From Minisyncoccota bacterium (GTDB taxonomy: Bacteria; Patescibacteriota; Minisyncoccia; Phycocordibacterales; Phycocordibacteraceae): a stretch of DNA of 64,000 nucleotides. The stretch's first letter is position 1, and every line of letters starts with the position of its first letter. Positions 28,949 to 63,737 of the stretch are shown here, piece by piece. The notes below the pieces were generated by a model. The model saw only the letters and a list, made by a program, of their open reading frames with translations. It was not told where the DNA came from and searched no databases. A program made the position numbers and the translations under genes. Where the stretch lies: positions 58,426 to 122,425 of the forward strand of contig JAGOSG010000001.1 of NCBI GenBank assembly GCA_018062445.1. The letters run 5' to 3'.

Positions 28949-28979
28949 AAAAAACCTCCCCGCATGGGGAGGTTTTTTA
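28949..28979. terminator. bidirectional intrinsic terminator
   Basis: AAAAAA-CCTCCCC-gcat-GGGGAGG-TTTTTT. Confidence 0.8.
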
Positions 28980-28998
28980 ATACTTCCTATTCCACAAT

Positions 28999-29949
28999 TT
29001 ACTTTTTTGAAGCTGGCGTAGAAGAAAACGAAACTCCGAATTTCTTCTCTAATGCTTCTTGATACTTAGATGAACGAGCAGACTTCAACATCTCGGAAAA
29101 ATAATACTGAACCGCTACATCAGCCATAATTTCTTTCATTGACACTTCTCGTCCCTGAGACGAAAGCTCTTGTTTGAAAATTATCTCCAGACCTTGCAAA
29201 GCAAAACCGAATGCTTTCTCGAGCGAGATTGGTTCTTCTGCTTCACGCTCTATGCGTATTTCTTGGAAGAGTGCTTGTATTCCCTGAAAAACACGGGGAT
29301 GTTCAATAATCACTTTAACCTCATTAATGGGAATAGCACCACCAATAGAACCTGTCTGATCGAGGTTTGCAAAGGTATTGATACCTATGACTTCATCTTT
29401 TGCATTAAGCATAACCCCACCAGAACTTCCTGAACGAATGTCAGCATCTGTTCTGAAGGCGAACTGTTCATGGCCATCAGGTACTGAAGTAACAGTCCCT
29501 TGAGAAAAACTTCCTCCTACACCAAGAGGGTTCCCAGCAATTGTAATTGTTGCTCCTCTCTTTACCTTATCTGAATCCCCAATGGTAAGTGGCTCATGTT
29601 TAGTTCCTGCGACTTTCAAGAGTGCAAAGTCACGCACGGGGTCTATATAAAAAACTTCTGCCGTTAGTTTTTTCTTTGAATCCAATTGCACCACCAAAGC
29701 CTCATCTTGGCTACCACCTGACACGACATGCCTATTAGTCACAATCATTCCATCCTTTGATACAAAAAAGCCGCTCCCTTCAGCTGTTGGAACCCAGTGA
29801 GACTCTTGTGTTCGTTCGGGATTCTTTGGATGCACTGACCCTTTAACTTCTTTAAAAACCTTCACACTAACTACCGAGTGTGCCACACGCTCGACAGTAC
29901 GCTCCAATGGAGTCTTTTCTGTATGTGCTTCATTCATAATTTTTTGCAT
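28999..29949 (-). CDS. trypsin-like serine protease (S1C/HtrA-like catalytic domain, no obvious PDZ)
   Basis: GSGFFVSKDGMIVTNRHV (His box), DADIRSGSSGGVM (Ser box). Confidence 0.8.
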   Translation of the reverse strand: MQKIMNEAHTEKTPLERTVERVAHSVVSVKVFKEVKGSVHPKNPERTQESHWVPTAEGSGFFVSKDGMIVTNRHVVSGGSQDEALVVQLDSKKKLTAEVFYIDPVRDFALLKVAGTKHEPLTIGDSDKVKRGATITIAGNPLGVGGSFSQGTVTSVPDGHEQFAFRTDADIRSGSSGGVMLNAKDEVIGINTFANLDQTGSIGGAIPINEVKVIIEHPRVFQGIQALFQEIRIEREAEEPISLEKAFGFALQGLEIIFKQELSSQGREVSMKEIMADVAVQYYFSEMLKSARSSKYQEALEKKFGVSFSSTPASKK

Positions 29950-29967
29950 TGTACCTTAGATTGATGT

Positions 29968-29998
29968 ATATGTCAATACCCACCTAAAGGCGGGTATT
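29968..29998. other. 8-bp-stem hairpin CAATACCC-N10-GGGTATTG in the 5' region of the protease gene
   Basis: Perfect inverted repeat 20-50 nt upstream of the protease start; no T-run. Confidence 0.3.
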
Positions 29999-30025
29999 GA
30001 GTAGTCAATTCTGTATTAAAAAACT

Positions 30026-30457
30026 TTATTTTTGAGCCAGCGTAGCTCCTTCTGTCGATTTCTTTGAGAGAGGTCCCCAACAAGCTTTAGAAGATGCCCA
30101 AGGCTTTGTACCCTCTTTCTCATACAAACGCTTAGCGTAGGCAAGGTTACCGTCAAGGGTGTGCAAGTCGAGATTCATAGCCTCTGCTTGCTCTTCATGA
30201 TACTTGGTATTAATTTGCATCACCCCTATATCCTTAGGATTGACGACGCCACGCAATATATCGCCCTCTTTATCGACATGACGAATTCTGGACTCACACC
30301 ATGCTATATCGGCCAAAATAGGCGTATCAGCGTAGTACTGCTTCACATACTGTCCTAAGGTTTCCACCTTTGGACCTTCTGGGTTTGTGGTCGTAGAAAG
30401 TGCTGTGGGCGTAGACATGGCAACGCTCGCTAGCAATAGCATAATTGGTAAGAACAT
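30026..30457 (-). CDS. secreted lysozyme-like / lytic transglycosylase-domain protein
   Basis: Signal peptide; …IAWCESRIRHV…GVMQIN…YHEEQA…GNLAYAKRLYEKEG…CW resembles the transglycosylase-like domain. Confidence 0.55.
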   Translation of the reverse strand: MFLPIMLLLASVAMSTPTALSTTTNPEGPKVETLGQYVKQYYADTPILADIAWCESRIRHVDKEGDILRGVVNPKDIGVMQINTKYHEEQAEAMNLDLHTLDGNLAYAKRLYEKEGTKPWASSKACWGPLSKKSTEGATLAQK

Positions 30458-30545
30458 ACGATTTAATGATTTTGGCCCATAGGGGCCGTTAGTGATGATG
30501 TAAACCTGCTTTGAGTTCCCCTTCGTAATAATCGAAATTGGGGTA

Positions 30546-30572
30546 CTAAAAAAGCCGGCCCGAAAGCCGACT
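30546..30572 (-). terminator. minus-strand intrinsic terminator about 220 nt downstream of the LOG gene
   Basis: On the minus strand: AGUCGGC-uuucgg-GCCGGCU followed by UUUUUU. Confidence 0.5.
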
Positions 30573-30729
30573 ACCTCACTACGCTAGCACTGGGAACTTT
30601 TGGTGTCAAGGCTTGCGGAACCAAAAAACACTCTTCTACGGCTCTACAGAGCCACAAAAATGCTGGTGGGGAAATAGAGGTTTTTAAGATATTTTCGACG
30701 TTGAACCCTCCCGCGAAAACGACGAGGCT

Positions 30730-30789
30730 TGTTCCCTACGGAACCGACGAGGCGTCGCCTAAACGCTAAACCTTACCCTCTATCCCCTC
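30730..30789. repeat. composite repeat: tandem-hairpin element plus CCCTAAA-like heptamer tail
   Basis: GTTCC-ctac-GGAAC, CGACG-agg-CGTCG, then cctaaacgctaaaccttaccctctatcccc. Confidence 0.7.
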
Positions 30790-30792
30790 TTC

Positions 30793-31524
30793 TTAGCATT
30801 TGACGAGCTTCAAAATTTCCTGATGAGCCTCTTCAGGAGTGTCAGCCACCACAAAAAGGTCTAAATCTTCCTTGTTGATGGTCTGATACTTAATGAGGAG
30901 GTGTTCTTTAAAGAAGTTGAGGAGTGGTGTCCAGTATTCCCTATTGTAGAGAATTATAGGAATCCGCTTGATTTTGTTGGTTTGAACTAAGGTCAAGATC
31001 TCAAACAACTCATCCATAGTCCCAAAACCGCCCGGGAAGTAGATATATACCTCAGAGGCAAAGGAAAGCATCACTTTCCGAGTGAAGAAATAATTAAAGA
31101 GGGCCGTGTCGGTGAGGTAGGGATTAACGTGCTGTTCAGTTGGAAGTTTGATGTTAAGCCCTACAGATTGCCCTCCTGCTTCAAATGCTCCCTTACTTGC
31201 AGACTCCATAACACCTCCTGCACCACCTGTAATAACCACAAATCCTGATTTAGCGAGCTTCTCCGCAAGCAATCGCGCATCTTCATATACCTTTGGATTC
31301 ATATGAGAACGAGCTGAACCAAAGAAGGTCGCAGCCAGACGATATTTCCGGAGCATGGAGAATCCATCAATCAATTCACCCATTATCTTAAAAATACGCC
31401 AAGACTCCATGTCTTTAGTGTGGTCAGTTTTTTCAGGATCACAGACACGAAAATCCCCTTCCATGCGATGTTCGCCAGGAGGATTTACTATTCGGTATTT
31501 TCTTTGCGGATCAGACATGGTCAA
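30793..31524 (-). CDS. LOG family protein (TIGR00730; cytokinin riboside 5'-monophosphate phosphoribohydrolase-like)
   Basis: GGAGGVMES… and PGGFGTMDELFE (PGGxGTxxE) motifs. Confidence 0.85.
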   Translation of the reverse strand: MTMSDPQRKYRIVNPPGEHRMEGDFRVCDPEKTDHTKDMESWRIFKIMGELIDGFSMLRKYRLAATFFGSARSHMNPKVYEDARLLAEKLAKSGFVVITGGAGGVMESASKGAFEAGGQSVGLNIKLPTEQHVNPYLTDTALFNYFFTRKVMLSFASEVYIYFPGGFGTMDELFEILTLVQTNKIKRIPIILYNREYWTPLLNFFKEHLLIKYQTINKEDLDLFVVADTPEEAHQEILKLVKC

Positions 31525-31544
31525 AGTGTAACATTTGAAACTAC

Positions 31545-31581
31545 TAGCTTACAGCTTTCAGGTGTCAGCTTTCAGCTTTTT
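31545..31581. repeat. AGCTTTCAG-type heptad repeat
   Basis: tagcttacagctttcaggtgtcagctttcagcttttt. Confidence 0.6.
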
Positions 31582-31594
31582 GGGGAAAGAAAAA

Positions 31595-32194
31595 CTACTT
31601 AGAAAGCCAAGGGATTGGAAAAGGAGAGAACTCTGGGAGAAGAGGCTTTCTGTAGAGGATCCGTGAAGCAACTTCAGCGTGCGAGAGGGCGCCAGTGAGA
31701 GCATTATGGGGCTTCGGCTCTTCTGGAATACCTACATATTTAAGAGCGGTGTCTAGAGTCAGTTTTGTGTGATGTTTCTCCTCATCAAACGGAGGGGTAA
31801 TTCCTCGTTCCACCATATGCATGTAGGTAAGGGTGTGAGTATCAATCGTTCGGTGCGCAAAAGGAAAATTAATACCTCCCCTCTCGCAAGCGGCAATCAA
31901 GAAGTCTCTATCAAAAGATGGATTTTGTCCTACAAAAGTTCGATCATGAACAGCAAGTGTCCATGAAATAAAATCTTGCACCAGTTCTATTTCGCTTTTC
32001 TTTGAAAGATCAATGGCTTGTGCGTGTGAAAAACCGTTAACCCCAAGTGCTTCTTCATTAATATGAGCTCCATCCCACACCCTACACTCGCCATAAAAAC
32101 GATTAGCAGGAGTAGCAACATCGATTCCCCCAATTGAGAGTATCGAATTCTTATGAGGCTCTGTGCCTGAGCATTCAATGTCTAGAGCAATCAT
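31595..32194 (-). CDS. DEDD-family 3'-5' exonuclease (DnaQ/RNase T-like)
   Basis: Exo I motif MIALDIECSG, 199 aa. Confidence 0.8.
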   Translation of the reverse strand: MIALDIECSGTEPHKNSILSIGGIDVATPANRFYGECRVWDGAHINEEALGVNGFSHAQAIDLSKKSEIELVQDFISWTLAVHDRTFVGQNPSFDRDFLIAACERGGINFPFAHRTIDTHTLTYMHMVERGITPPFDEEKHHTKLTLDTALKYVGIPEEPKPHNALTGALSHAEVASRILYRKPLLPEFSPFPIPWLSK

Positions 32195-32195
32195 T

Positions 32196-32240
32196 TTAGT
32201 TAGGGGTTAGTGTTTAGGGTATAGGGTATAGGGGTAAATG
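32196..32240. repeat. TTAGGG-like heptamer array
   Basis: ttagttaggggttagtgtttagggtatagggtataggggtaaatg. Confidence 0.7.
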
Positions 32241-32308
32241 TACAATAAAATGAGAGCTGGTGTGTAGATATCTTCTCACTCAAAATTAAGAGTACACACG
32301 CTCAAAGA

Positions 32309-32352
32309 CCTGTATAGTATAACTTAACGATCGTTAAATTATACTATACAGG
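32309..32352. repeat. 44-bp palindrome CCTGTATAGTATAAcTTAACGATCGTTAAATTATACTATACAGG (copy 2)
   Basis: One mismatch to a perfect dyad; followed by a T-run. Confidence 0.85.
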
Positions 32353-32388
32353 GTTTTTAATTTTTATATTTGACTTAATTTGAAAAAT

Positions 32389-32423
32389 TGAAAGCTAGAA
32401 CCTAGAAGCTAGCACCTAGAGCC
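32389..32423. repeat. AGCTTTCAG-type heptad repeat (opposite arm)
   Basis: tgaaagctagaacctagaagctagcacctagagcc. Confidence 0.55.
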
Positions 32424-32427
32424 TTCT

Positions 32428-32832
32428 TCACATCCCATTACAACGGCCAGCGTGGTAGCCGGCACCCTCAGCGGAAACCCTACTGCTGAAATAAATTCTG
32501 TCCATTGAAGAAATCTTTACCGCAAGTGGGCACCATGGGAAAAAGTAAGTACTTCCTATCTTCGACGCTACAAAATAGCCCGCAACCTGAGGTAGTGGCG
32601 GTAAGGTAATTTCCTCTCTAATACCACCAACACCCAAGAATCCAGTGAGAGCTGAAGCACTTTGACCATTTGGATAGATCACCTTAAATTGGCCTTTTTC
32701 TCCGTAGAAAACAGATAATCTCCCAAGCCCAAAGGCCAACGATGCAACTAACACAATAACGATAACAATTAGTGTGTTTTCCCATACTCTCGCCCCTAGA
32801 GCCTTGATTTTATTAATGAAATCACGAAACAT
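32428..32832 (-). CDS. hypothetical protein with N-terminal TM helix
   Basis: 134-aa ORF, no family recognised. Confidence 0.45.
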   Translation of the reverse strand: MFRDFINKIKALGARVWENTLIVIVIVLVASLAFGLGRLSVFYGEKGQFKVIYPNGQSASALTGFLGVGGIREEITLPPLPQVAGYFVASKIGSTYFFPWCPLAVKISSMDRIYFSSRVSAEGAGYHAGRCNGM

Positions 32833-33020
32833 ATTGAGTAGATTTCAGTTATACCCTGTTAAATCTGGCTCAAAGCCAGCCAGCTTGAAATTTTCCCTGA
32901 AAACAGTTATATTCTATAGTATAGAGTACGCAATGAGCGGTTTTCTATACACCTGAGTCCAAGCTGGATTTAACAGGGTGTAAGAATTTCTAAGCTCGAT
33001 ACTCGCTAAGAACTTCTAAC

Positions 33021-33293
33021 ATGGCAACAAAAAAAGCAGCCGGCTCCGCTAAAAATCTTACCGATTCCAATCCACAATACTTGGGCGTTAAGCTCTATGA
33101 GGGTCAGAAGGCAAAGAAAGGTTCAATCATCATCCGTCAGCGCGGTACAAAATTCATGCCAGGAAAGAATGTTGAGGTAGGTAAAGACCACACGCTCTAC
33201 GCAGTTGAAGAAGGCACTGTCTCTTTCCGCCTTGCTCGAAAAACAAAATTTGACGGTTCAACCATCAAGCGAAATGTTGTTGACGTAAAATAA
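33021..33293 (+). CDS. rpmA: 50S ribosomal protein L27
   Basis: …[26 protein letters not shown]… matches the L27 signature. Confidence 0.92.
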
Positions 33294-33315
33294 GCATCCG
33301 TCCCGCATCAATAAA

Positions 33316-33346
33316 CAAAAACTCCGCACATGTGCGGAGTTTTTTA
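33316..33346. terminator. bidirectional intrinsic terminator shared by convergent rpmA and rplI
   Basis: AAAA-ACTCCGCACA|TGTGCGGAGT-TTTTT, a perfect 20-nt palindrome. Confidence 0.8.
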
Positions 33347-33793
33347 ATTGGTAGTCGTTAAGGAAACTGAAATTTCCGCAAAAGCACCTTGAATTTTTAC
33401 TTCAACTCGGTGAGAGCCGAGCTTTTTTATTGGGCCATCAACAATCAAGATTGAATCTTCAGGCACTGACATCTTAAATTGCTTCAAAACAGCTTGGGCA
33501 ACTTGTTTTGCATGAATAGACTCAAAGAGTGTCCCCTTGTCATTTGCTTTAGCCTGAATTTCAAGCACTTTTCCGTCAATCTCAGCAAGTGCCTTTTTAG
33601 CTAAGGTGGTATCCATAGCCACTTTATCTTTTGCGCTCTGATTTCGTTTTTCAAAACTACGGATATTCTCAGCTGTAGCAGGTAAAGCCAACTTCTTTGG
33701 AATCAAGACATTCTGAGCGTAGCCATCAGCCACAGTAATCAGAGTTCCTCGTTGACCTACCTTCTTAACATCGGCGAGCATTATGACTTTCAT
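33344..33793 (-). CDS. rplI: 50S ribosomal protein L9
   Basis: MKVIMLADVKKVGQRGTLITVADGYAQNVLIPKKLA N-domain. Confidence 0.9.
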   Translation of the reverse strand: MKVIMLADVKKVGQRGTLITVADGYAQNVLIPKKLALPATAENIRSFEKRNQSAKDKVAMDTTLAKKALAEIDGKVLEIQAKANDKGTLFESIHAKQVAQAVLKQFKMSVPEDSILIVDGPIKKLGSHRVEVKIQGAFAEISVSLTTTN

Positions 33794-33886
33794 ACCTAAT
33801 AGCTTACCGTCTAACGAGCCGAGGGGGAAGAGAGGAAATTTCTCTCTTCCCCGAGCGAGAGCTGACGGAAAACCACTTTGTGGTTT

Positions 33887-33915
33887 ACAGGTTTCAGCTC
33901 TCAGGTGCCAGTTTT
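33887..33915. repeat. AGCTTTCAG-type heptad repeat
   Basis: acaggtttcagctctcaggtgccagtttt. Confidence 0.5.
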
Positions 33916-33925
33916 CTTTGTTCTT

Positions 33926-33968
33926 ACCTGTATAGTTTAATCTAACGATCGTTAAGTTATACTATACA
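33926..33968. repeat. 44-bp palindrome family, diverged copy 3
   Basis: cctgtatagtttaatctaacgatcgttaagttatactatacag. Confidence 0.8.
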
Positions 33969-34022
33969 GATCTTTTTATCTTTAGGGTTCCCCTGTTTGG
34001 CTTAGAGAATTGAAAAACCAGA

Positions 34023-34078
34023 TGATCCCTTCGGATCCGATGAAGTATCGCCTAGTCACTAAACGCTAAACCCTTCTA
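34023..34078. repeat. composite repeat: tandem-hairpin element plus CCCTAAA-like tail
   Basis: GATCC-cttc-GGATC, CGAT-gaagt-ATCG, then cctagtcactaaacgctaaaccc. Confidence 0.7.
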
Positions 34079-34079
34079 C

Positions 34080-35294
34080 TTACTTTCCTGTAATCAAAAA
34101 CTCCGCAGCCCTTTCTAGTTGAGGGTCACGCTTTGCATCTATATCTTCCTCAGTAACTGCCACTTCAATATCAGGAACTATACCCTCATGAGAAATAGAG
34201 ACTCCATTAGGGGTTAGCCAGCGAGCAATAGTTATTTTTAATGAAGTATCTGCGGTTACATTAAAAAGTTGCTGTACCGACCCTTTACCGAATGATTTTC
34301 CACCAATAAGAGTTGCCTTGCCATGATCACGGAGTGCTCCCGCTAGAATCTCTGATGCAGAGGCGGAACCTTCGTCAATTAGAATCGCAAATTTTACCTT
34401 GTCAGAAAAAACATCATACCCACGACTTCGACTAACATCAGGAGCCTGCTTAGAACCAAAATCTTCGGTAACTATCACCTTCCCTACTGGCAAAAACCAA
34501 CTAGCAATGTCAACGGCCACCTCCAAGTAACCACCAGGGTTACCACGAAGGTCAATAATCATTTTATTGGAACCTGAATCAGCAAACTCACGGATAGCCT
34601 GACGGAACTTCTCGGGAGCATTTGCATTGAATGTAAAAAGGCGGATTACAAACACGCCATCAGGTCGCGATGTTGTCTTAATGGTTGGGAGATTGATAGT
34701 GGCTCGAACTAGCGTTACATCAAATGGAGCATCTTTGCCACGAATCACTGTGATAGTGACCGGCGTACCAATTTCTCCTCGAATAACACTGACTGCATCA
34801 TCAACAGATATGCCTACAGTATCTTTACCTTCAATTTTTAGAATGATGTCCCCGCTCCTCATTCCAGCCTTTGATGCAGGCGTACCTTCAAGTGGCGCTA
34901 CTACGGTAAGGATTCCATCTTTAAGACCTAACTCCATCCCAACACCACCAAAATCACCTTGAACTTGGCTATCAAAAAGCTTTTTCTCTTTTGGAGGGAA
35001 AAAGGTTGTATAAGGATCACCATAAGAAGAAGCGAGGCCTTCTATCATTCCCCACAACCTATCTTCATCGGTACTCGTTGCCGTAGTGGTGGATGGAGTA
35101 AAATTTTGATCAAGTAATTCCCACGCCTTAAATAATGGCTGTAGATCCGCCTTTGAATAATCTGTAGCGCCACGCGCCTGAGTTGTCCAAGGAACCATTC
35201 CTCCAGCTTCTGTACCAACAAAGAAGGCAACAATGGCAACAAGTACTACCGCTATCAGTGCAGTGCGAAGTCCAATTTTAGAATTGTCTTTCAT
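34080..35294 (-). CDS. ctpA: carboxyl-terminal processing protease (S41) with PDZ domain
   Basis: N-terminal TM, PDZ, S41 core IDLRGNPGGYL. Confidence 0.88.
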   Translation of the reverse strand: MKDNSKIGLRTALIAVVLVAIVAFFVGTEAGGMVPWTTQARGATDYSKADLQPLFKAWELLDQNFTPSTTTATSTDEDRLWGMIEGLASSYGDPYTTFFPPKEKKLFDSQVQGDFGGVGMELGLKDGILTVVAPLEGTPASKAGMRSGDIILKIEGKDTVGISVDDAVSVIRGEIGTPVTITVIRGKDAPFDVTLVRATINLPTIKTTSRPDGVFVIRLFTFNANAPEKFRQAIREFADSGSNKMIIDLRGNPGGYLEVAVDIASWFLPVGKVIVTEDFGSKQAPDVSRSRGYDVFSDKVKFAILIDEGSASASEILAGALRDHGKATLIGGKSFGKGSVQQLFNVTADTSLKITIARWLTPNGVSISHEGIVPDIEVAVTEEDIDAKRDPQLERAAEFLITGK

Positions 35295-35326
35295 TGTTTC
35301 CTATTATGCCACAGAGAAGCGTTTAG

Positions 35327-35403
35327 GGTTTAGGGAATAGCGTTTAGGTTTGTGAATCTCTAAAATTTTTCCCCTAAACGCTGACCACTAAACACTAACC
35401 CCT
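35327..35403. repeat. inverted pair of TTTAGGG/CCCTAAA heptamer arrays in the divergent ctpA/corA promoter region
   Basis: agcgtttagggtttagggaatagcgtttaggtttg … cccctaaacgctgaccactaaacactaacccc. Confidence 0.7.
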
Positions 35404-35420
35404 GCTGGTATACTGTTCTG

Positions 35421-36335
35421 ATGATAAACCGTTACGAATACGAGGGCATAATTTGGATAGACATAGAAAATCCAACCGCTGATGAAATTGCCGAGGTCGG
35501 GCAAGAATTTAACCTTGGACTTTTACTCCGACAAGAGCTGTTGGCACCAACAATAAAGCCCCGTGTAGATTTATATCCCGAGATTGTCTACACACTTCTT
35601 CATTTCCCAGCACGAAGACACACGCACAATGTACAAGAAAGTCAGGAGGTCGATTTCGTTATCGGCAAACACTTCATCATTACGGTGCACTATGACACCA
35701 TTGATGCTCTTGTTGATTTTGCTCGATCATTTGAAGCCGCGATGCTTCTTAAGCGCACGACAGGGAAATTCCACAGTGGACATGTACTCTTGGAACTTAC
35801 GCAACGACTCTACCAAGAAGTGGAATATGAATTAGATTCCCTTGAAGATTCTGTAACTGCGATTGAAACGGCAATATTCTCAGGACGTGAGAAAGACATG
35901 GTCTTAGCAATATCGCGTGTCACTCGTGAACTCATTGATCAAAAACGCACACTCTCCATGCATGCTGAGGTTCTTGCTTCTCTAGAACAAGCGACTACGA
36001 CCTTATTCGGTGAACACTTCACCGAATATCTCCGTGGAGTATCTGCATTTCACTACCGTGCGCACCAACGAGCACTTGCCATGATGGATATCGTCACCGA
36101 ACTTCGAAAAACAAACGACTCCCTCTTGACCACACGCCAAAACGAAATCACAAAAAACCTTACTATCATGGCATTCATTACCTTTCCGCTTTCCGTGGTA
36201 GCAGCGGTGTTCGGAATGAACACTGAACACACACCCATCGTCGGATCCCCGAACGGTTTCTGGATCATCACGGGAGCCATGGTCGTCCTTACCGCAGTCT
36301 TTTTCATCTACTTTAAGATTAAGAAGTGGTTCTGA
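35421..36335 (+). CDS. corA: magnesium transporter CorA
   Basis: Two C-terminal TM helices with the GMN motif (AVFGMNTEH). Confidence 0.88.
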   Translation: MINRYEYEGIIWIDIENPTADEIAEVGQEFNLGLLLRQELLAPTIKPRVDLYPEIVYTLLHFPARRHTHNVQESQEVDFVIGKHFIITVHYDTIDALVDFARSFEAAMLLKRTTGKFHSGHVLLELTQRLYQEVEYELDSLEDSVTAIETAIFSGREKDMVLAISRVTRELIDQKRTLSMHAEVLASLEQATTTLFGEHFTEYLRGVSAFHYRAHQRALAMMDIVTELRKTNDSLLTTRQNEITKNLTIMAFITFPLSVVAAVFGMNTEHTPIVGSPNGFWIITGAMVVLTAVFFIYFKIKKWF

Positions 36336-36342
36336 GGCACAA

Positions 36343-36366
36343 AGTGCCAGCTTATAGCTTCTAGGG
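36343..36366. repeat. AGCTTTCAG-type heptad repeat (short)
   Basis: gtgccagcttatagcttctaggg. Confidence 0.45.
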
Positions 36367-36398
36367 AGGAAATGAAGGGATGCTCTGGTTTTTTTCTT

Positions 36399-36435
36399 GC
36401 CCTAAACCCTATACCCTAGTGGCTAAACCCTAATT
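36399..36435. repeat. CCCTAAA-type heptamer array
   Basis: gccctaaaccctataccctagtggctaaaccctaatt. Confidence 0.7.
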
Positions 36436-36506
36436 CAGATGTGCAAAACTCCGTGTACAAACCTCCGCATAACGGCTCTTTTTATAGATTTCTTTAAAAA
36501 CGACGA

Positions 36507-37904
36507 GTGCTACAATGCACTGCTATGGCAAACCAAGGTGCACGAATTCCTCCACAATCCACTGAAGCAGAGCGAGCACTTTTAGGCTCAGTGATGATCA
36601 AGCCTGACTCAATTCATGAAGTCACCGACTTTGTATCGGCAGATTCTTTCTATGTAGAAAAACACCGCCTCATTTATCGAGCATTCACTGACCTTACAAC
36701 TGGCGGAAATCCTATTGACCTATTGTCTACTGCAAACCGCCTCAAAGAGACAAATGACTTAGAGCGTGCTGGTGGTAACGCGTACCTAGCTGAACTCGTG
36801 AGTGCAGTACCAAGCTCAGCAAACCTCAAACACTATGCTGAAATTGTTCAGAAAAAATCAATGATGCGTTCCCTCATTTCCGCATCGTCAGACATTGGCG
36901 AGATGGGCTATGACGAATCACAAGACATTGATGAACTGTTAAATAGCGCTGAAAAAAGAATCTATGAAGTGACCAGCTCCCCTTCTGTTAGAAAGTTCGT
37001 TGCGATCGGTGATGCCTTGGGAGAGGCGTGGGAGCGTTTTGATAACCTCCACAAGGGTGACTACCAAATGCGAGGCATCCCAACAGGCTTTGATGCCCTC
37101 GACAACATGCTTGCAGGCTTTCAACGCTCTGACCTCATCATCCTTGCCGCTCGTCCTTCCGCAGGTAAAACCGCTTTTGCCTTGGACATCGCGAGGCAAA
37201 CCGCCATTAAGCACGGCACACCAGTGGGAATTTTTTCACTTGAAATGAGCGCCCAGCAGTTAGTCGACCGCATGCTCGCAGCTGAGGCTCGAGTAGACGC
37301 ATGGAAACTCCGTACTGGAAAAATTTCTACTGATGAAGAATTTGAAAGAATCCGCGATGCTATGGGTCGTCTGTCTAAAGCTCCAATTCACATCGATGAT
37401 CAACCTGCAACAAATGCACTCGGTATGCGCTCTGCAGCTCGTCGATTAAAACGAGAGCACGGCATTGGCCTCCTTGTGGTTGACTACCTTCAGCTCATGA
37501 GTCCAACATCATCTCGCTCATCAGACTCAATGGTTCAGCAAGTCACCGAAATCTCTCGTTCTCTAAAAACCCTTGCTCGTGAACTCGACGTTCCCGTACT
37601 TGCACTCTCCCAGCTTTCGCGTGCCATTGAACAAAGACGAGGCCGTCCTCGCCTTTCAGACCTTCGTGACTCTGGTTCAATTGAGCAGGACGCCGATGTG
37701 GTTATGTTCATTCACAATGAAGATAGATACAATGACAACAAAGAAGAGCGAAGTAATGTTACTGAAATCTTGATTGAAAAACACCGCAATGGTCGTACAG
37801 GGAAAATAGATCTCTTCTTCGATGTAGAACGAGCAACATTCTTACCTATTGAAAAATCAGGCTTTAGTGGAGGCGCCCCAGGAAACGCACAGGATGATTT
37901 TTAA
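36507..37904 (+). CDS. dnaB: replicative DNA helicase DnaB (alt start 36525)
   Basis: N-terminal domain …PPQSTEAERALLGSVMI…, Walker A GARPSAGKT, RecA-like core; no intein. Confidence 0.92.
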   Translation: MLQCTAMANQGARIPPQSTEAERALLGSVMIKPDSIHEVTDFVSADSFYVEKHRLIYRAFTDLTTGGNPIDLLSTANRLKETNDLERAGGNAYLAELVSAVPSSANLKHYAEIVQKKSMMRSLISASSDIGEMGYDESQDIDELLNSAEKRIYEVTSSPSVRKFVAIGDALGEAWERFDNLHKGDYQMRGIPTGFDALDNMLAGFQRSDLIILAARPSAGKTAFALDIARQTAIKHGTPVGIFSLEMSAQQLVDRMLAAEARVDAWKLRTGKISTDEEFERIRDAMGRLSKAPIHIDDQPATNALGMRSAARRLKREHGIGLLVVDYLQLMSPTSSRSSDSMVQQVTEISRSLKTLARELDVPVLALSQLSRAIEQRRGRPRLSDLRDSGSIEQDADVVMFIHNEDRYNDNKEERSNVTEILIEKHRNGRTGKIDLFFDVERATFLPIEKSGFSGGAPGNAQDDF

Positions 37905-37911
37905 TTTAAAA

Positions 37912-37988
37912 AGGTGTCAGGTTTCAGCTGTCGGCTTTCAGCTTTGAATTCAGAAAAAGCTGGCACCTGGCACCTGAAAGCTGTAACC
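37912..37988. repeat. AGCTTTCAG-type heptad repeat, both arms (near-identical to the copy at 53139)
   Basis: ggtgtcaggtttcagctgtcggctttcagctttgaattcagaaaaagctggcacctggcacctgaaagctgtaacc. Confidence 0.75.
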
Positions 37989-37996
37989 TATTCAAT

Positions 37997-38593
37997 ATGC
38001 GTCCCACACAAGATCTCATTGAACACATTGCGGAGTTCCCCGGCATTGGCCCAAGACAAGCTCGTCGTGTAGTGCAATTTCTCCTCTCTGCAGGAGTACC
38101 TTTCCGCGAAAAATTAGCAAACCTCATTATTGAATCTGGCAAATCAACATCCCCCTGCACTACATGCTTTCGTTTCGATGACGCACGAGACTCAGGCGTA
38201 TGTTCAATTTGCTCTGATTCTCTCCGCGATCACACAACACTGATGGTAGTTGAAAAAGATATTGATATAGAAGGTATAGAAGGCTCTGGGGCGTATAGAG
38301 GAATCTATTTCATTCTAGGAGGGCTCAAAACTATGACGGAGAGAAAAAACTCTCGGATGGTGCGAACAAAAGAGCTACTAGAGCGTGTAGCAAAAAACGA
38401 CACAAAAGAAATTATTTTTGCTCTTTCAACCACACCCGAGGGTGACTACACAGCCCGTGAACTTTCAAAAGAAATACAAAAAGCACATCCTGATAAAAAA
38501 GTAACCCTTCTTGGGCGAGGGCTTTCAGTAGGGGCTGAAATTGAGTACGCAGATTCGGAAACACTCAGAAGTGCTCTTAGAAATCGGTCTTAA
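37997..38593 (+). CDS. recR: recombination protein RecR
   Basis: HhH (FPGIGPRQARR), C4 zinc finger (CTTC…CSIC), Toprim. Confidence 0.9.
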   Translation: MRPTQDLIEHIAEFPGIGPRQARRVVQFLLSAGVPFREKLANLIIESGKSTSPCTTCFRFDDARDSGVCSICSDSLRDHTTLMVVEKDIDIEGIEGSGAYRGIYFILGGLKTMTERKNSRMVRTKELLERVAKNDTKEIIFALSTTPEGDYTARELSKEIQKAHPDKKVTLLGRGLSVGAEIEYADSETLRSALRNRS

Positions 38594-38957
38594 ATACGAG
38601 TGCGATTCTGCTTTCGACGCGCATGACGACCGACTATCTTGTCTGCTCGTTCTTCAGGCATACCACCAGGCAGAAGACCATCAAATCCTGATAGCCAAGC
38701 CTTCAAAAAAGACCCGAAAAGACTAGTTTCTGGGATACGCTTTCTTTCTGGAAGTAATGGCATATGTAATATGTAATTTAATATCTTAATAAACCTAGGA
38801 AAAACCGTCTTATTTTTTCTCCATTAGAAGCTCTGTAAATATTATTATATCTCTTCGCAGCATGCTCTGCTCTGCCGGGAGGTAAACCACGCTGGCGGTA
38901 CTCTGCCTCTACTCCATGTAAAAAGAAAGTGGACATAGCAACAAACGAGAAAAGAAT

Positions 38958-39269
38958 TTAAACGCTCTCAATCTTCACTTTCATGTTGGGCTGTTTGTGC
39001 CCTCGTTTCTTGTAGTATCGGCTTTTTGCTTTGTACTTTACAACAACAACCTTAGGAGCGCGTCCTACCATCAAAACGGTACCAGTAACTTTTGCACCTG
39101 AAACAGTTGGAGCACCAACTGATGCTTTTGCTCCATCGTCAGTAAAAAGGACAGCATCAAAGGTGATTTTGTCGTCTTTCTTGACATTAGCTATTTTTTC
39201 AATCGTAATCAAAGAACCCTCTTTTACAAGGTACTGCTTCCCTCCTGTCTTTATAACCGCAATATTCAT
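38958..39269 (-). CDS. rplU: 50S ribosomal protein L21 (start at MNIAVIK; ORF opens at 39305)
   Basis: MNIAVIKTGGKQYLVKEGSLITIEKI matches the L21 N-terminus. Confidence 0.88.
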   Translation of the reverse strand: MNIAVIKTGGKQYLVKEGSLITIEKIANVKKDDKITFDAVLFTDDGAKASVGAPTVSGAKVTGTVLMVGRAPKVVVVKYKAKSRYYKKRGHKQPNMKVKIESV

Positions 39270-39309
39270 ATCAGAGCATCGTACCAAAAAAGCCCTAAAA
39301 AGCAACTTT

Positions 39310-39350
39310 CCTTAGGGTCTAGGGGTCAGCGTTTAGGGTTTAGGTATTAG
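39310..39350. repeat. TTAGGG-type heptamer array just upstream of rplU
   Basis: ccttagggtctaggggtcagcgtttagggtttaggtattag. Confidence 0.7.
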
Positions 39351-39351
39351 T

Positions 39352-39531
39352 TTTTAAAGCTGAACGTCGGCCTCAGGCGCCCTTCTACTTAAAGTACGCA
39401 AAAGTCCTGCAATCAAATGGGCAGGTATTTTATCTAGAGACTCAGGTCTCGCAAGTGCATTTGCCCGCTCTGGCCGAGTTCCACGACGCCCACGCTTACG
39501 CCTAGAAACAGTTTCGTTCTTTGCTTCATTC
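39352..39531 (-). CDS. hypothetical 59-aa Arg-rich protein upstream of rplU
   Basis: MNEAKNETVSRRKRGRRGTRPERANALARPE…; ORF only, below the ORF-track cutoff. Confidence 0.25.
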
Positions 39532-39581
39532 ATGCGGATATACTATATCGGCTGACAATGACCTGTCAAAAAGCCGAAAAA

Positions 39582-39839
39582 CTACTTTGCTCCTTCAATC
39601 AATTCAGGACGCAAGACTGTCTTTGTAGGGTGGAATAATCGTCGCACAAATCTCTCTGAAGCAGTAGACGCTAGACCTACTTTCCCATGGCGAAATAACG
39701 CCGCCCAAAAGACTGTTTTCTTGATGACACGACTATCTAAGTTCGGCTCTAGAGAATCCTCAGGAGTATAAAACATGTCGTGCTGAAGCCACGGGCTTGG
39801 ATCTGTAAACATAGTTAAAAAGCACTGTACCGTAACCAA
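39582..39839 (-). CDS. hypothetical protein (start uncertain)
   Basis: 85-aa ORF, no family. Confidence 0.3.
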   Translation of the reverse strand: MVTVQCFLTMFTDPSPWLQHDMFYTPEDSLEPNLDSRVIKKTVFWAALFRHGKVGLASTASERFVRRLFHPTKTVLRPELIEGAK

Positions 39840-39892
39840 AGCTTTCTGTCGTCATTCACTCAGTATCCTCCAAGCCACACCCTTCATGTTTG

Positions 39893-39938
39893 TACCTGTA
39901 TAGTATAATTTAACGATCGTTAGATTATACTATACAGG
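39893..39938. repeat. 44-bp palindrome family copy 4 (ACCTGTATAGTATAATTTAACGATCGTTAgATTATACTATACAGGT)
   Basis: One mismatch to a perfect dyad; T-run follows. Confidence 0.85.
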
Positions 39939-39975
39939 TCTTTTTCGCCTTTTATCCGATTATTTGATTTAAGAG

Positions 39976-40100
39976 GTGGAGAGGCTGACACCTATTCTAC
40001 GCAAGCAGAGCTTCTTCTTATTGTTCGCTCGGAAATATTCAAACCTAACACCTCCCATTTATTCTACGCAAGCAGAGCTTCCTCTCATCGTTCGTTCGGC
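39976..40100. repeat. two-copy tandem direct repeat (about 63-bp period) downstream of glmS
   Basis: acacctATTCTACGCAAGCAGAGCTTCttcttattgttcgctcgg / acacctcccatttATTCTACGCAAGCAGAGCTTCctctcatcgttcgttcgg. Confidence 0.6.
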
Positions 40101-40133
40101 ATTATCCAAGCCGAGCTTGTCTACTGCCCTCAC

Positions 40134-41954
40134 TCACTCGACAGTGACTGACTTCGCAAGATTACGAGGGCGGTCAACATTGAGTCCCTTATCCGCCGCA
40201 AAGTGATAGGCAAAAAGTTGGAGCGCGATTATGGAAAGCACTACTGAAAGTTCTTCAGATGCTTTTGGAATGTATATAACATGATCAGAGACCTCTTTGA
40301 TTTTCTCATCACCAGCAGTGGCAATAGCAATCACTGGTCCTTTACGGGTACGTATCTCTATCATGTTAGAAACAGTTTTCTCGTACACTGAATCTTGAGG
40401 AACAATGGCAACTGTTGGGAATTTCTCATCAATCATTGCAAGTGGTCCGTGCTTCATCTCCCCTGCCCCATATCCTTCCGCGTGTACGTATGAAACCTCT
40501 TTGAGCTTCAGTGCTCCTTCTAAGGCTGCGGGATAACTAAACTTGCGACCAATAAAAAGGAAATCTCGTGAATCTTTATATACATTAGCAACTTTACGAA
40601 TTTCTTCAGACTGTTCCAACACTTTTTTTGCTAACTCTGGCAAACTTTTAAGTGCATTAGCCAATGCAACACCATCATCTTTAGAGAGTGAGCGAGTACG
40701 GCCAAGGAAGAGTGCAACGAGTGAAAGAATAACCACTTGAGAAACAAGAGCCTTGGTGGAAGCAACGCCAATTTCGGGGCCTGCATGGTTATACACTCCA
40801 GCGTCTGTCTCACGAGCAATCGTAGAGCCTACGGTATTCACAATGCCAAGAGTAAGTGCACCGTGTCGCTTTGCTTCACGGATAGCTTCAAGTGTATCGA
40901 GAGTCTCGCCTGACTGGGAGATTGCCAAGACTGCGGTGTTTGGTCTGATAACTGGCTTTCTATAACGAAATTCCGAAGCAAGTTCCACTTCAACAGGAAC
41001 ACCAGCAAGGGATTCAATTAAATACTCACCAATGAGTCCTGCGTAGTATGCGGTTCCACAACCAACAATAATAAGTCTGTCGATATTTTGAAGCTCTTTT
41101 TCAACTGCTTCTAGTCCGCCAAGTTTTGCCTTCCCTTCTTCCATAATAAGCCTGCCTCGAAGTGCATTCTCTATAACCTCAGGCGATTCCATCATCTCTT
41201 TCAGCATGAAATGTGGATATCCCCCGCGTGATGCCTCCCCAACATCCCAAGTAATGGTTTCAGATGGGCGATCAACCTCGGTTTCTAAAAGTGTACGCAC
41301 ACGGTGCGTTGTAGGCGTGATAATCGCAACGTCTCCATCAGAGAGAAACATCATTTGCTTCGTGTGTTTCAAAATTGGCGTTGCATCAGAGGCAATAAAA
41401 TTCTCTCCGTCTCCTAAGCCCACGACAACAGGAGAACCCATTCGTGCAGTAATAATGGTGTCGGGATCTTTTGCATAGGAAATCAGAAGACCATAAGTGC
41501 CTCGAAGTTTCTTCAGGGTATCGATAACAGCATCTTCAAAATTAAGTTTGTCTTTCAGAGCTCCTTCAATAAGGTGCGCAATCACTTCAGTGTCAGTCTC
41601 TGATTTAAATGTATGACCTCCCGCTAAAAGCTCTTCTTTTAACTCACGGAAGTTTTCAATAATGCCATTGTGAATTACAAACACATCTCCATCACAGTCG
41701 CCATGTGGGTGCGCATTGACTTCATTTGGGGCTCCGTGAGTTGCCCAGCGTAGATGCGCTATCCCAGAAGTCGCAGGATAGTCTTTTGTCATTCTTTTGG
41801 TAAGCTCTGCAACCGCGCCAGGGGTCTTCACCACATCAAAGCCAGGCATATATATTCCTGCAGAATCATATCCTCGGTACTCAAGCATTGAGAGCCCTTC
41901 GAGAAGGATTGGTGACGCTTTTTTAGAGCCAGTGTAGGCAAAGATTCCGCACAT
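40134..41954 (-). CDS. glmS: glutamine--fructose-6-phosphate aminotransferase
   Basis: N-terminal MCGIFAY (Ntn Cys), two SIS domains, 606 aa. Confidence 0.95.
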   Translation of the reverse strand: MCGIFAYTGSKKASPILLEGLSMLEYRGYDSAGIYMPGFDVVKTPGAVAELTKRMTKDYPATSGIAHLRWATHGAPNEVNAHPHGDCDGDVFVIHNGIIENFRELKEELLAGGHTFKSETDTEVIAHLIEGALKDKLNFEDAVIDTLKKLRGTYGLLISYAKDPDTIITARMGSPVVVGLGDGENFIASDATPILKHTKQMMFLSDGDVAIITPTTHRVRTLLETEVDRPSETITWDVGEASRGGYPHFMLKEMMESPEVIENALRGRLIMEEGKAKLGGLEAVEKELQNIDRLIIVGCGTAYYAGLIGEYLIESLAGVPVEVELASEFRYRKPVIRPNTAVLAISQSGETLDTLEAIREAKRHGALTLGIVNTVGSTIARETDAGVYNHAGPEIGVASTKALVSQVVILSLVALFLGRTRSLSKDDGVALANALKSLPELAKKVLEQSEEIRKVANVYKDSRDFLFIGRKFSYPAALEGALKLKEVSYVHAEGYGAGEMKHGPLAMIDEKFPTVAIVPQDSVYEKTVSNMIEIRTRKGPVIAIATAGDEKIKEVSDHVIYIPKASEELSVVLSIIALQLFAYHFAADKGLNVDRPRNLAKSVTVE

Positions 41955-41957
41955 AAA

Positions 41958-41991
41958 CTAGGGTTTAGGGTTTAGTGAATAGTGTTTAGAG
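41958..41991. repeat. TAGGGTT heptamer array immediately upstream of glmS
   Basis: ctagggtttagggtttagtgaatagtgtttagag. Confidence 0.7.
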
Positions 41992-42039
41992 AAAGACTCA
42001 GCTAATACTACCTGAAAGACACGCATTCGGTAACAGCAA

Positions 42040-49190: not shown

Positions 49191-49233
49191 CTGAAAAGCT
49201 GGAAGCTGACAGCTGGCACCTGAAAGCTACTAG
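49191..49233. repeat. AGCTTTCAG-type heptad repeat (opposite arm)
   Basis: ctgaaaagctggaagctgacagctggcacctgaaagctactag. Confidence 0.6.
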
Positions 49234-53108: not shown

Positions 53109-53138
53109 CTTTGTATTCTAGCGTATGAAGCAACTATT

Positions 53139-53215
53139 AGCTGTCAGGTTTCAGCTGTCAGCTTTCAGCTTTGAATGCAAAAGCTGGCACCTGGAAGCTG
53201 GCACCTGGAAGCTAC
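53139..53215. repeat. AGCTTTCAG-type heptad repeat, both arms
   Basis: agctgtcaggtttcagctgtcagctttcagctttgaatgcaaaagctggcacctggaagctggcacctggaagctac. Confidence 0.75.
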
Positions 53216-53219
53216 TACA

Positions 53220-54525: not shown

Positions 54526-54537
54526 TTTTTTTTCTTA

Positions 54538-54574
54538 AAGCTGGAAGCCGAAAGCTGTAACCTGAAAGCTTTTA
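54538..54574. repeat. AGCTTTCAG-type heptad repeat between mraZ and rsmH
   Basis: aaagctggaagccgaaagctgtaacctgaaagctttt. Confidence 0.55.
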
Positions 54575-55006: not shown

Positions 55007-55040
55007 GAAAATAAAGGGGATTTTGTGGCTCAAAACTTAT

Positions 55041-55115
55041 ATGCCACTTTGTCCCACTTACTTCGTATTATATGCCACTCTGCCCCACTTTATGTTTACT
55101 TATCCCCACTTTGGA
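55041..55115 (-). promoter_or_regulatory. mraZ promoter with MraZ-box direct repeats (five AGTGG[G/C] motifs, two pairs at 10-bp period) flanking a TATAAT -10 element
   Basis: Minus strand: aaGTGGGgataagtaaacataaaGTGGGgcagaGTGGCaTATAATacgaagtaaGTGGGacaaaGTGGCat. Confidence 0.55.
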
Positions 55116-55155
55116 GAGCCAGGTTGTAGGTGTGAGGTGTGAGCTTTCAGGTAAC

Positions 55156-57680: not shown

Positions 57681-57720
57681 GGTGTCACCTGAAAGCTGAA
57701 AGCTGGCACCTGAAACCTAC
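57681..57720. repeat. AGCTTTCAG-type heptad repeat
   Basis: ggtgtcacctgaaagctgaaagctggcacctgaaacctac. Confidence 0.6.
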
Positions 57721-63431: not shown

Positions 63432-63737
63432 ATTCGTGTAACTAATTACCTCATAACGCCAACCCTTCGAATTTCTTCGAAACGTAAGGGGCGCAAAGCA
63501 GCGCGGTACCACCCTTTAGTAATCCCAAACAAAAAGCGCCTACCGGCGCGTGCTTGGAATCCTCAGTGCTCCTGCCTTTCGGCTGACACACGTAGACGCG
63601 TTTTTACGGTTGTCCTCCGTCGCACTTATATCCACCGTGGAATTTCGTGCGCAGCTTGTTTGGCTGGGTACCAAACTCAAACGCCTGTATGTAACTAAAA
63701 CTAGTGTACCAAAAGAAGCGAGAGTGTCAAAACTAAC
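63432..63737 (-). promoter_or_regulatory. T-box riboswitch leader (minus strand) upstream of the hypothetical-csaA-proS operon; candidate promoter TTGACA-16-TACACT at its 5' end
   Basis: Exact T-box core 5'-AGGGUGGUACCGCG-3' is the reverse complement of 63502-63515; candidate specifier-loop ACCCA (Pro CCC codon); GCGCC-ggua-GGCGC-UUUUU hairpin nearby. Confidence 0.55.

Follow-up and report, generated by a model that had tools for sequence, protein, structure and literature searches.

Degenerate arrays of 7-nt units are dispersed through the intergenic spacers of a 64,000-nt stretch (the window; positions are counted from its first letter) of contig JAGOSG010000001.1, which is part of a metagenome-assembled genome of Candidatus Paceibacterota (Candidate Phyla Radiation, CPR; Patescibacteria). 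The window was placed in a 259-kb contig of assembly GCA_020049755.1, and the public gene calls were used for gene positions in the window. We conclude with high confidence that these arrays are a lineage-specific burst of degenerate heptanucleotide repeats, of the class of the cyanobacterial (STRR), Xanthomonas and Beggiatoaceae heptamers. With the same high confidence, their basic unit is an imperfect palindrome, consisting of a G/T-rich arm anchored by AG, a short loop and a C/A-rich arm anchored by CT, placed in a stop–start spacer that ancestrally spanned a few bases. We favour, giving it about even weight, the view that the arrays are tolerated, self-propagating repeat DNA with incidental RNA effects and not a dedicated signal.

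The locus at 53139–53215 has this build. On the + strand it reads AGCTGTC AGGTTTC AGCTGTC AGCTTTC AGCTTT, then the 7-nt loop gaatgca and then AAAGCT GGCACCT GGAAGCT GGCACCT GGAAGCT, i.e. two inverted arrays. It lies inside the dcw operon, where the order is mraZ–(solo arm)–rsmH–ftsL-like–(focal hairpin)–ftsI–murE, the label ftsL-like being given from synteny alone. Other housekeeping operons host such elements as well: a hairpin follows grpE–dnaK and precedes dnaJ, another separates dnaB from recR, and a solo arm stands between two tRNA synthetase genes.

The repeat family and its unit

Arrays were detected as (AGNNNNN)≥3 AG on both strands of the window and compared with 200 first-order Markov shuffles. 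The + strand holds 13 arrays (shuffle mean 0.8, maximum 5) and the complementary strand another 13 (mean 1.0, maximum 4). With the AG/CT anchor the count is 13/13 at period 7 and only 0–2 at periods of 5, 6, 8, 9, 10 and 11. Every convincing array is intergenic, although 84% of the window is coding; three weak three-unit matches (5443, 10925 and 63562) are chance-like, two of them falling within open reading frames (ORFs) and that at 63562 being unplaced relative to ORFs. The heptad family is real and not due to chance. A preliminary description of this DNA, made from the sequence by eye, had reached the same view from 13 loci; heptad arrays are present at all 13 and all of these are intergenic, as it had claimed. 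Its list fell short in extent: it missed an entire flavour of units (b, see below) and the arms at 22631 and 22720, and the family now comprises about 27 arms in about 18 spacers.

The unit matrix (n = 87 units) is A-G-S-K-K-H-Y (5'→3'). The AG at positions 1 and 2 is the sole invariant feature; degeneracy at positions 3–7 is two- to three-fold, and A hardly occurs outside the AG. A pyrimidine precedes the invariant AG, so the array can also be written as YAG-N4 repeated four to five times. Counting the window together with the relatives L135, L136 and L005, there are 11 arrays of three units, 38 of four, four of five and one of six. A typical arm has four units and a closing AG, giving about 30–35 nt and five AG anchors.

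Several flavours of unit coexist in one genome, even inside one array. The a flavour consists of AGCTTTC, AGGTGTC and AGGTGCC. The b flavour (AGGGTTT, AGGGTAT, AGCGTTT and AGTGTTT) is found at 25561, 30758(−), 32202, 34051(−), 35318/35371, 36400(−), 39314 and 41960, and a TAG-type flavour (AGGTTCT and AGCTTCT) at 32391(−) and 36349. Some b arms (41960–41975 and 35325–35338) contain (TTTAGGG)2, an exact plant-type telomere repeat, which is probably a coincidence. We also considered a decoy for restriction–modification and rejected it: AGCT is not avoided (284 observed, 280 expected), nor is CAGCTG avoided in the genome.

The a-flavour arms at different loci have in common the unit order AGCTTTC-AGGTGYC-AGCTKTC-AGCTTYC-AGCTTTT. 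Arms of different loci are 86–89% complementary, while a unit-by-unit count for the two focal arms gives about 70%. On this evidence the arms resemble dispersed copies of an element of about 35 nt and not products of independent local growth. The inverted pairs noted earlier at 3741, 37912 and 53139 do have the same build, and the loop is homologous in these three full copies. The identity of about 90% that had been quoted for the copies at 37912 and 53139 needs correction; it is 81% over 80 aligned columns and reaches 91% for the left arm and loop alone.

Position, polarity and folding

In 18 of the 22 arrays detected, the G/T-rich AG strand points away from the closest ORF end. At most 15 nt from that ORF lie 14 arrays (nine at stops and five at starts), against one on the opposite side, and four arms outside the strict detection (37912, 54537, 30758 and 36349) behave in the same way. 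Laid out on the mRNA, an AG arm stands right past a stop codon and a CT arm right ahead of the next start. Paired arms always run from AG to CT, and the order is identical on both strands. The elements had been described as lying mostly 3' of a gene and as possible 3'-end elements. This holds past the nine stops, but the complementary arm is equally systematic upstream of starts (five arrays) and the rule is symmetric about the spacer. Since both orientations occur within one replichore, with the orientation tracking the adjacent ORF end, the polarity rule follows gene ends and not replication, and a replication-strand effect was discarded.

Paired arms form long hairpins with five or six pairs per heptad and one mismatch or 2 × 2 loop. 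On both strands their free energies are −27 to −40 kcal/mol and their z scores −1.9 to −4.7. Solo arms have no structure (z of 0 to +1.25), and the outer arms in long spacers do not necessarily pair together. At all three a/a loci the + strand folds a few kcal/mol better, whatever the gene direction, and strand-specific RNA selection acting via G–U pairs was rejected on this ground. A covariance search against Rfam returned no match to the arrays at the gathering score or at E ≤ 1; the only gathering-score match in the window is a tRNA, and a known RNA family was rejected.

Shine–Dalgarno (SD) motifs stand ahead of only two of 71 genes and the leaders are A/T-rich and G-poor, so translation initiation is evidently SD-independent here. 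The start codon is ATG in 70 of the 71 genes. A role of the arrays as a substitute for the SD motif was rejected, because the genome is almost SD-free with or without arrays and in SD-using genomes the arrays lie upstream of the SD (L016). A guard of ORF boundaries, supplying stops in all three frames, was dismissed too: many CT units hold TGA, TAA or TAG, but the focal CT arm (CTGGCAC/CTGGAAG) and the published G-rich heptamers hold none.

Turnover among relatives

In five assemblies that cover arrays at a coding difference of ≤0.1% there are 0 differences in 23–157 array bases. In L133, which is 99.7% identical over 12.2 kb, the sole large difference is at the focal locus (11307–11428, corresponding to 53109–53219 of the window). 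The arm nearest the stop is missing there, and a copy of the other arm (27/28) stands in its place in direct orientation, giving a spacer with two direct CT-type arrays and abolishing the hairpin.

At 92–97% nucleotide identity (L005, L006, L135 and L136) arrays are found at the same spacers with their polarity kept, and the flavour is often swapped. At dnaB–recR both arms are of a flavour (a/a) in the window and of b flavour in L005, L135 and L136, the arm upstream of rplU is b in the window and of AGGTTTT type in L135, and the spacer at 31546 changes from a to b. Array length changes as well at the orthologous spacers, while non-array spacers stay alignable in these strains. The dnaB–recR spacer of L006 measures 255 nt. 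It carries a cassette of about 130 nt, composed of a b arm, a GGATCCGAAGG hairpin and a 44-nt palindrome, whose homologue forms part of the rplI–protease spacer of the window, and the CT arm of the L006 spacer is kept with a rearrangement at the level of units. This rearrangement is the only hint of slippage. A phase-variable contingency locus was excluded, as near-identical assemblies show no polymorphism in unit number and the neighbours are housekeeping genes.

The window, L135 and L136 have array densities of 4–9 per 10 kb. No arrays, beyond matches at about the chance rate, are present in relatives whose RecR identity is ≤69%; these relatives keep dnaB beside recR with a spacer of only 2–30 nt. 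From the missing arrays and these short spacers it follows that the arrays are recent additions to ancestrally minimal spacers and are dispensable. The arrays are thus lineage-specific, recent and dispensable, stable at very short divergence and replaced wholesale at moderate divergence. The earlier suggestion of a proliferating miniature repeat is borne out by the unit order and loop kept across loci, by the narrow lineage and by the filling of spacers that are 2–30 nt long in relatives. Compared with miniature inverted-repeat transposable elements, inverted arms are present, and 'empty' dnaB–recR spacers of 2–30 nt are found in distant relatives only.

Occurrence in other phyla

An exact scan for AGSTKTY ×3 + AG, with one genome per species and about nine chance matches expected by our own estimate, gave at least 120 genome loci, with Acidobacteriota, Bacteroidota, Desulfobacterota, Planctomycetota, Cyanobacteria, Chloroflexota, Actinomycetota and several Patescibacteria among the matches listed. 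At least 120 further matches are on viral contigs (IMG/VR; L159–L238). Among those listed, two viral contigs of about 2.5 kb (L190 and L227) have arrays at both ends.

The listed genome loci contain a further 206 arrays anchored by AG; one Markov shuffle of the same loci yielded 16 arrays of any kind. With crude longest-ORF gene calls, the AG strand is nearer its 5' ORF in 149 arrays versus 68 overall, in 67 versus 17 paired arrays and in 82 versus 51 solo arms, and the order AG..CT is found 32 times against two for CT..AG. Arm cognacy is 3.25 of five variable positions compared with 1.99 ± 0.13 in permutations, none of 5000 of which reached the observed value; typical cognacy is four of five, equivalent to one mismatch per heptad. 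Many phyla and viral contigs thus share the heptad type (AG-S-T-K-T-Y) with its polarity and the cognacy of its arms.

Relation to known repeat systems

Heptanucleotide intergenic repeats have been known since about 1990, the STRR repeats reportedly having been described by Mazel in that year, and we know of no accepted function for them. In Xanthomonas (GGGAATC) and Nostoc (GGGGAYT) the G-rich strand of such intergenic heptamers is found within 50 bp past stops on the coding strand or ahead of ORFs on the non-coding strand (Rehm et al., 2015; PMC4692102). Four units are favoured, inverted pairs occur, and close species have them in the same spacers with extensive variation in length and sequence (PMC4692102). 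They show no link to gene class or to insertion-sequence elements, and their function was left unresolved, with G-quadruplex formation being proposed (PMC4692102). The Paceibacterota arrays resemble these heptamers in unit length, intergenic bias, strand rule, four-unit preference, inverted pairs and shared variable spacers. They differ in that their units are degenerate and their flavours mixed and in that most arms cannot form a G-quadruplex; moreover, whole minimal spacers are filled in a reduced CPR genome and the burst is limited to a species-level lineage.

The TAACTGA (= CTGATAA) repeats of marine Beggiatoaceae, some Cyanobacteria and Bacteroidetes lie just upstream of SD-less starts (MacGregor, 2015; PMC4679880). 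Binding of S1, Csp or CsrA was proposed for them, and Mrazek's polymerase-slippage idea for heptamers was cited (PMC4679880). Here the likeness is in the CT-anchored heptads (CTGAxxx on the coding strand) a few nucleotides upstream of starts, in the SD-poor hosts, in the 2–6 units per set, in the sporadic phylogenetic distribution and in the lack of a prominent functional class downstream. In contrast, TAACTGA is a near-perfect single heptamer that is almost never inverted (one indirect repeat in 170 sets), whereas the basic unit in Paceibacterota is an inverted pair, with the complementary arm past stop codons.

Of the features of the heptanucleotide class (LSSR, STRR, GGGAATC and TAACTGA), the 7-nt unit, the non-coding bias, the strand rule, the preference for about four units and the shared variable spacers are all present, and (near-)identical units within an array are not. 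As only AG is invariant, we place the family in this class as a degenerate form, distinct from a classical simple sequence repeat. The possibility that the arrays are an already known type of element, raised in the preliminary description, thus applies in part, through their match to the published class (PMC4692102 and PMC4679880). In the literature we found no description of such arrays in CPR bacteria.

Two other systems have features in common with the arrays. TIGR arrays (TIGR-Tas) are made of units of about 36 nt with box C, box D and two spacers and lie beside a tas gene with a Nop domain. CUGA recurs in CT arms here and there is one CTGATGA at 57672; however, box C periodicity is absent, the arms are dispersed and no Nop or Tas gene was found in the Pfam tables for about 66 kb of the contig, and we judge the resemblance to a TIGR array or C/D-box guide to be a coincidence. 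REP elements and REPINs are RAYT-associated imperfect palindromes, often 3' of genes in operons, in which the inverted doublet seems to be the spreading unit and singlets are remnant-like; effects on mRNA stability or translation are incidental. Dispersed imperfect palindromes and inverted doublets forming a hairpin are found here too. Unlike the present arms, which swap flavours at one locus, REPs have no heptad periodicity, and no RAYT (Y1 transposase) gene was found among those called in about 66 kb of the 259-kb contig.

Origin and possible function

If the arrays are tolerated repeat DNA, the heptad periodicity would favour slipped-strand gain and loss of units, and ectopic copying between arrays, by gene conversion or template switching, would spread or replace whole arms and flavours. 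With moderate confidence we infer that spread and replacement proceed by such copying, with slippage shaping the unit number. Small cassettes could later have come to lie between the arms, each arm still abutting its ORF. The bulged hairpin would fold the insert out of the transcript and rejoin the upstream stop and the downstream start, and this folding may be why inserts are tolerated in tight SD-less housekeeping operons. One mismatch per heptad would avoid long perfect double-stranded RNA and perfect DNA palindromes. Present-day effects would be incidental and at most modulatory: translation of the downstream gene might be damped or coupled, or the upstream 3' end protected.

Several points weigh against this reading. 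The genes called in about 66 kb yielded no mobilizing enzyme, no target-site duplication was found or can be defined, since whole spacers differ, and how the arrays spread is therefore only inferred. Given the constant unit number in near-identical assemblies, slippage is not seen directly. L133 is a k-mer-based assembly and its focal allele could be a real recent conversion or an assembly artefact. Arrays persist at orthologous spacers through full sequence replacement and their four-unit length is tight, which could equally mean selection for function. Across phyla, the solo arms that abut a 5' ORF (82 versus 51) are explained only loosely by decay of a partner arm, and the gene calls behind all cross-phylum counts are crude.

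A cis-regulatory RNA hairpin is the main alternative, although on the whole we think it unlikely. Paired arms would occlude the downstream SD-less start until a ribosome that terminates upstream opened the stem at its base, giving translational coupling, and they could also protect the upstream cistron against 3' exonucleases. Such a hairpin would set unequal expression within an operon, e.g. DnaK above DnaJ or FtsL against FtsI, and the hairpins are indeed located in operons where unequal stoichiometry is expected. The geometry fits, as the hairpin base joins stop and start (the AG arm lies 2–7 nt past the stop and the CT arm 0–7 nt ahead of the start) and the paired-arm hairpins are stable. 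As 69 of 71 genes lack an SD motif, initiation should depend mainly on the structure of the leader, and the arrays are kept at orthologous spacers despite turnover of their sequence. In Escherichia coli, effects on translation have been reported for REP elements that lie within 15 nt of a stop codon. The focal CT arm, however, ends 30 nt ahead of the ATG and leaves the leader free, the hairpin is lost in L133 and solo arms have no structure. The arm at 55121 is placed between a terminator and a promoter, and others are in divergent or convergent spacers (35318/35371 and 25561). Variable positions do not covary between the two arms of one locus, and pairing is better when the arms are taken from different loci. 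The a/a element is found in both orientations to transcription, with the G–U-favoured strand being antisense at 53139, and the relatives manage with spacers of 2–30 nt.

It is doubtful that the arrays are periodic protein-binding sites, in which a multimeric protein would read one YAG per subunit every 7 nt by analogy to HutP. The HutP site in the Bacillus hut operon is (UAG-N4)3, and the arrays have the same NAG triplets with exact 4-nt spacers (period 7) in single-stranded RNA; they differ in having five anchors instead of 3 + 3 and in occurring at dozens of dispersed loci instead of in one leader. Such a reader would account for an array in which only the pyrimidine-preceded AG is invariant while the other five positions drift, in which the number of anchors is tightly fixed at five and the period strictly 7, and whose solo arms are single-stranded. 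The C/A-rich heptads of the complementary strand, ahead of starts, could be recognized by a factor resembling S1, Csp or CsrA; such binding has been proposed for the closely related CTGATAA heptads (MacGregor, 2015; PMC4679880). Readers would nevertheless be needed for both strands, as mRNAs carry AG arms at their 3' and CT arms at their 5' sides. No HutP, Nop or other candidate RNA-binding family is present among the genes called in about 66 kb (positions 1–64000 and 721 bp upstream), and in that region neither a HutP-family gene nor a terminator/antiterminator partner was found. Ten unannotated proteins of the window gave no informative Pfam match except an Rv2179c-like exoribonuclease domain and yielded no candidate binder. 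The distribution over close relatives is patchy, and the occurrence of the heptad type in unrelated phyla and viruses speaks against a lineage-specific factor.

The arrays might also be cis-sites of a new kind of machinery that is common to many phyla, either an enzyme that mobilizes heptad-armed palindromes into stop/start junctions or a period-7 YAG-reading protein that marks boundaries. We regard this as improbable. If true, it would explain the near-universal AG→CT polarity (32 versus 2 across phyla), the four-unit length and the one mismatch per heptad, and the Paceibacterota lineage would be a very recent invasion caught happening.

Terminators were among the functions suggested at the outset. 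Like Rho-independent terminators, the hairpins are found right past stop codons, as are many arms, the a-flavour AG arms end in CAGCTTTT, and the small GGATCCGAAGGGATC hairpin behind b arms, with its trailing U-rich run, is flagged as weakly terminator-like. Unlike them, the heptad hairpins have an AU-rich and mismatch-rich stem and none is followed by a U-tract, the CT arm running at once into the next start codon. They are located within the dnaK–dnaJ, dnaB–recR and dcw operons, the solo arms do not fold and half of the ORF-abutting arms are at gene starts. Canonical terminators with a GC stem and U-tail exist elsewhere (28945, 33344, 26631 and 30572), and a scan of 22001–42000 for terminator-like sites contained no heptad hairpin. 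The heptad hairpins are not transcription terminators, and that they should be an unusual kind of intrinsic terminator or attenuator is very improbable.

G-quadruplex formation, as proposed for GGGAATC and GGGGAYT, is equally remote: the b unit AGGGTTT is the plant telomere repeat and the four-unit preference matches the four G-tracts required, but by inspection a-flavour arms have no G3 tract at all, only two of nine b arms have four, and G-poor flavours show the same four-unit preference.

Catalogue of arms and neighbouring spacer modules

The individual arms are collected in Table 1. Besides the heptads, some spacers contain other repeated modules. A (near-)perfect palindrome of 39–44 nt, CCTGTATAGTATAATTTAACGATCGTTAAATTATACTATACAGG, with TATAAT on both strands, is found at 22573–22611, 32309–32352, 33927–33969 and 39895–39938 and also in L006 and L135. 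Each copy is 75–140 nt upstream of a gene and is usually flanked by an AG arm and a CT arm; a T-run follows three of the four copies on the + strand. The palindrome could be a bidirectional promoter/operator, a terminator or part of a mobile cassette.

Table 1. Heptad arms in the window and their surroundings.
Feature	Positions	Strand	Context
AG arm	3744–3778	+	6 nt past dnaK stop
Partner arm (CT on +)	3794–3827	−	Ends 1 nt ahead of dnaJ ATG; hairpin with 3744–3778
Solo AG arm	13795–13822	+	45-nt spacer of two aminoacyl-tRNA synthetase genes, 3 nt past stop; unstructured, z 0.01
AG arm	22503–22539	+	2 nt past stop; first unit pairs with 22631–22646 around 39-nt palindrome
Short CT arm CTGGCACCTAAAACCT	22631–22646	−	Closes 10-bp stem with 22503
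CT arm	22720–22742	−	Ends right at ATG of gene at 22743
b-flavour AG arm	25561–25618	+	2 nt past stop; then small two-hairpin module CGACGCCCCGTCGGATCCGAAGGGATC
b arm and hairpin module	30731–30788	−	4 nt past stop of gene 30793–31464; compensatory A-U to U-A change in small hairpin
Solo a-flavour arm	31546–31581	+	Between two − strand genes; one of four 5'-abutting exceptions if start is 31464
b-flavour arm	32202–32234	+	CT arm on gene strand; ends 7 nt ahead of ATG at 32194
TAG-flavour arm (AGGCTCT AGGTGCT AGCTTCT AGGTTCT on −)	32391–32424	−	3 nt past stop at 32428
a-flavour arm	33889–33915	+	Within long rplI (L9)/protease spacer
b-flavour AG arm and GGATCCGAAGGGATC module	34024–34074	−	5 nt past stop of S41 protease gene
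b-flavour hairpin arm	35318–35348	+	Divergent protease/corA spacer
Partner b-flavour arm	35371–35403	−	17 nt upstream of corA ATG; nearly unchanged in L135, L136; TAG flavour instead in L005
Short AG arm	36349–36364	+	13 nt past corA stop
b-flavour CT arm	36400–36431	−	Upstream of dnaB
AG arm	37912–37945	+	7 nt past dnaB stop
Partner arm	37956–37989	−	Ends 7 nt ahead of recR ATG; best-folding hairpin of set, −35.7 kcal/mol, z −4.7
b-flavour arm	39314–39350	+	Upstream of rplU (L21); AGGTTTT/AGGTGCT units instead in L135
b-flavour arm	41960–41989	+	CT arm on gene strand; ends 5 nt ahead of glmS ATG
Solo a-flavour AG arm	49195–49228	−	14 nt past stop of inositol-phosphatase-like gene
Focal AG arm	53139–53172	+	CT arm on gene (−) strand; ends 30 nt upstream of start (53108) of ftsI-like penicillin-binding protein (PBP) gene
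Focal hairpin loop GAATGCA	53173–53179		Homologous to loops 3779–3793 and 37946–37955
Focal second arm	53180–53213	−	AG arm on −; starts 6 nt past stop of 125-aa ftsL-like gene
Solo AG arm	54537–54570	−	Fills 46-nt mraZ–rsmH spacer, 1 nt past mraZ stop; unstructured, z +1.25
Degenerate arm	55121–55155	+	Between lysS terminator and mraZ promoter/operator region
AG arm	57685–57718	−	First unit begins with TAG stop codon of PBP2 gene

The two-hairpin module CGACGCCCCGTCGGATCCGAAGGGATC directly follows b-flavour AG arms past stops, at 25592–25618(+), 30731–30757(−) and 34024–34050(−) and at about 195–225 in L006. The copy at 30731 has a compensatory change (GGTTCC GTAG GGAAC), and two copies of the module are flagged as weakly terminator-like. 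A GC-rich hairpin of about 60 nt (..ctcggggaag..cttcccc..) occurs at 22670–22730 and 33799–33859, just upstream of the gene for a 481-residue protein (22743) and of rplI (L9), respectively. The two copies are 77% complementary and have no Rfam match; the hairpin may be a leader or regulatory element. Tandem direct repeats of 53 nt, 85% identical, are located immediately 3' of glmS (39993–40045 and 40060–40112), and L135 has a single copy.

The region upstream of mraZ (55034–55120, −) contains repeated GTGGG/GTGGC boxes and two GTGGCATATAAT motifs, which resemble an MraZ operator overlapping the dcw promoter. A weak match to the T-box leader (28.6 bits, E = 0.018; gathering score 93) lies at 63484–63690(−), upstream of a gene with a tRNA-binding domain and a class II aminoacyl-tRNA synthetase gene.

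Implications

Annotators are advised not to count heptad hairpins of this kind as terminators or new structured RNAs. The cross-phylum regularities of polarity, four-unit length and cognate mismatched arms sharpen an old question without resolving it. The evidence added here to the heptanucleotide repeats is that the unit is an imperfect palindrome of fixed polarity and that heptad type, polarity and cognacy are found across phyla. What is new is that the class has a degenerate representative in the Candidate Phyla Radiation. The genome is reduced and its spacers are minimal, and any insertion between essential genes must be harmless there. Missing at RecR identities of ≤69% and turning over within a cluster of 92–99% identity, with a clear ancestral 'empty' spacer, the arrays of this lineage constitute a dated natural experiment.

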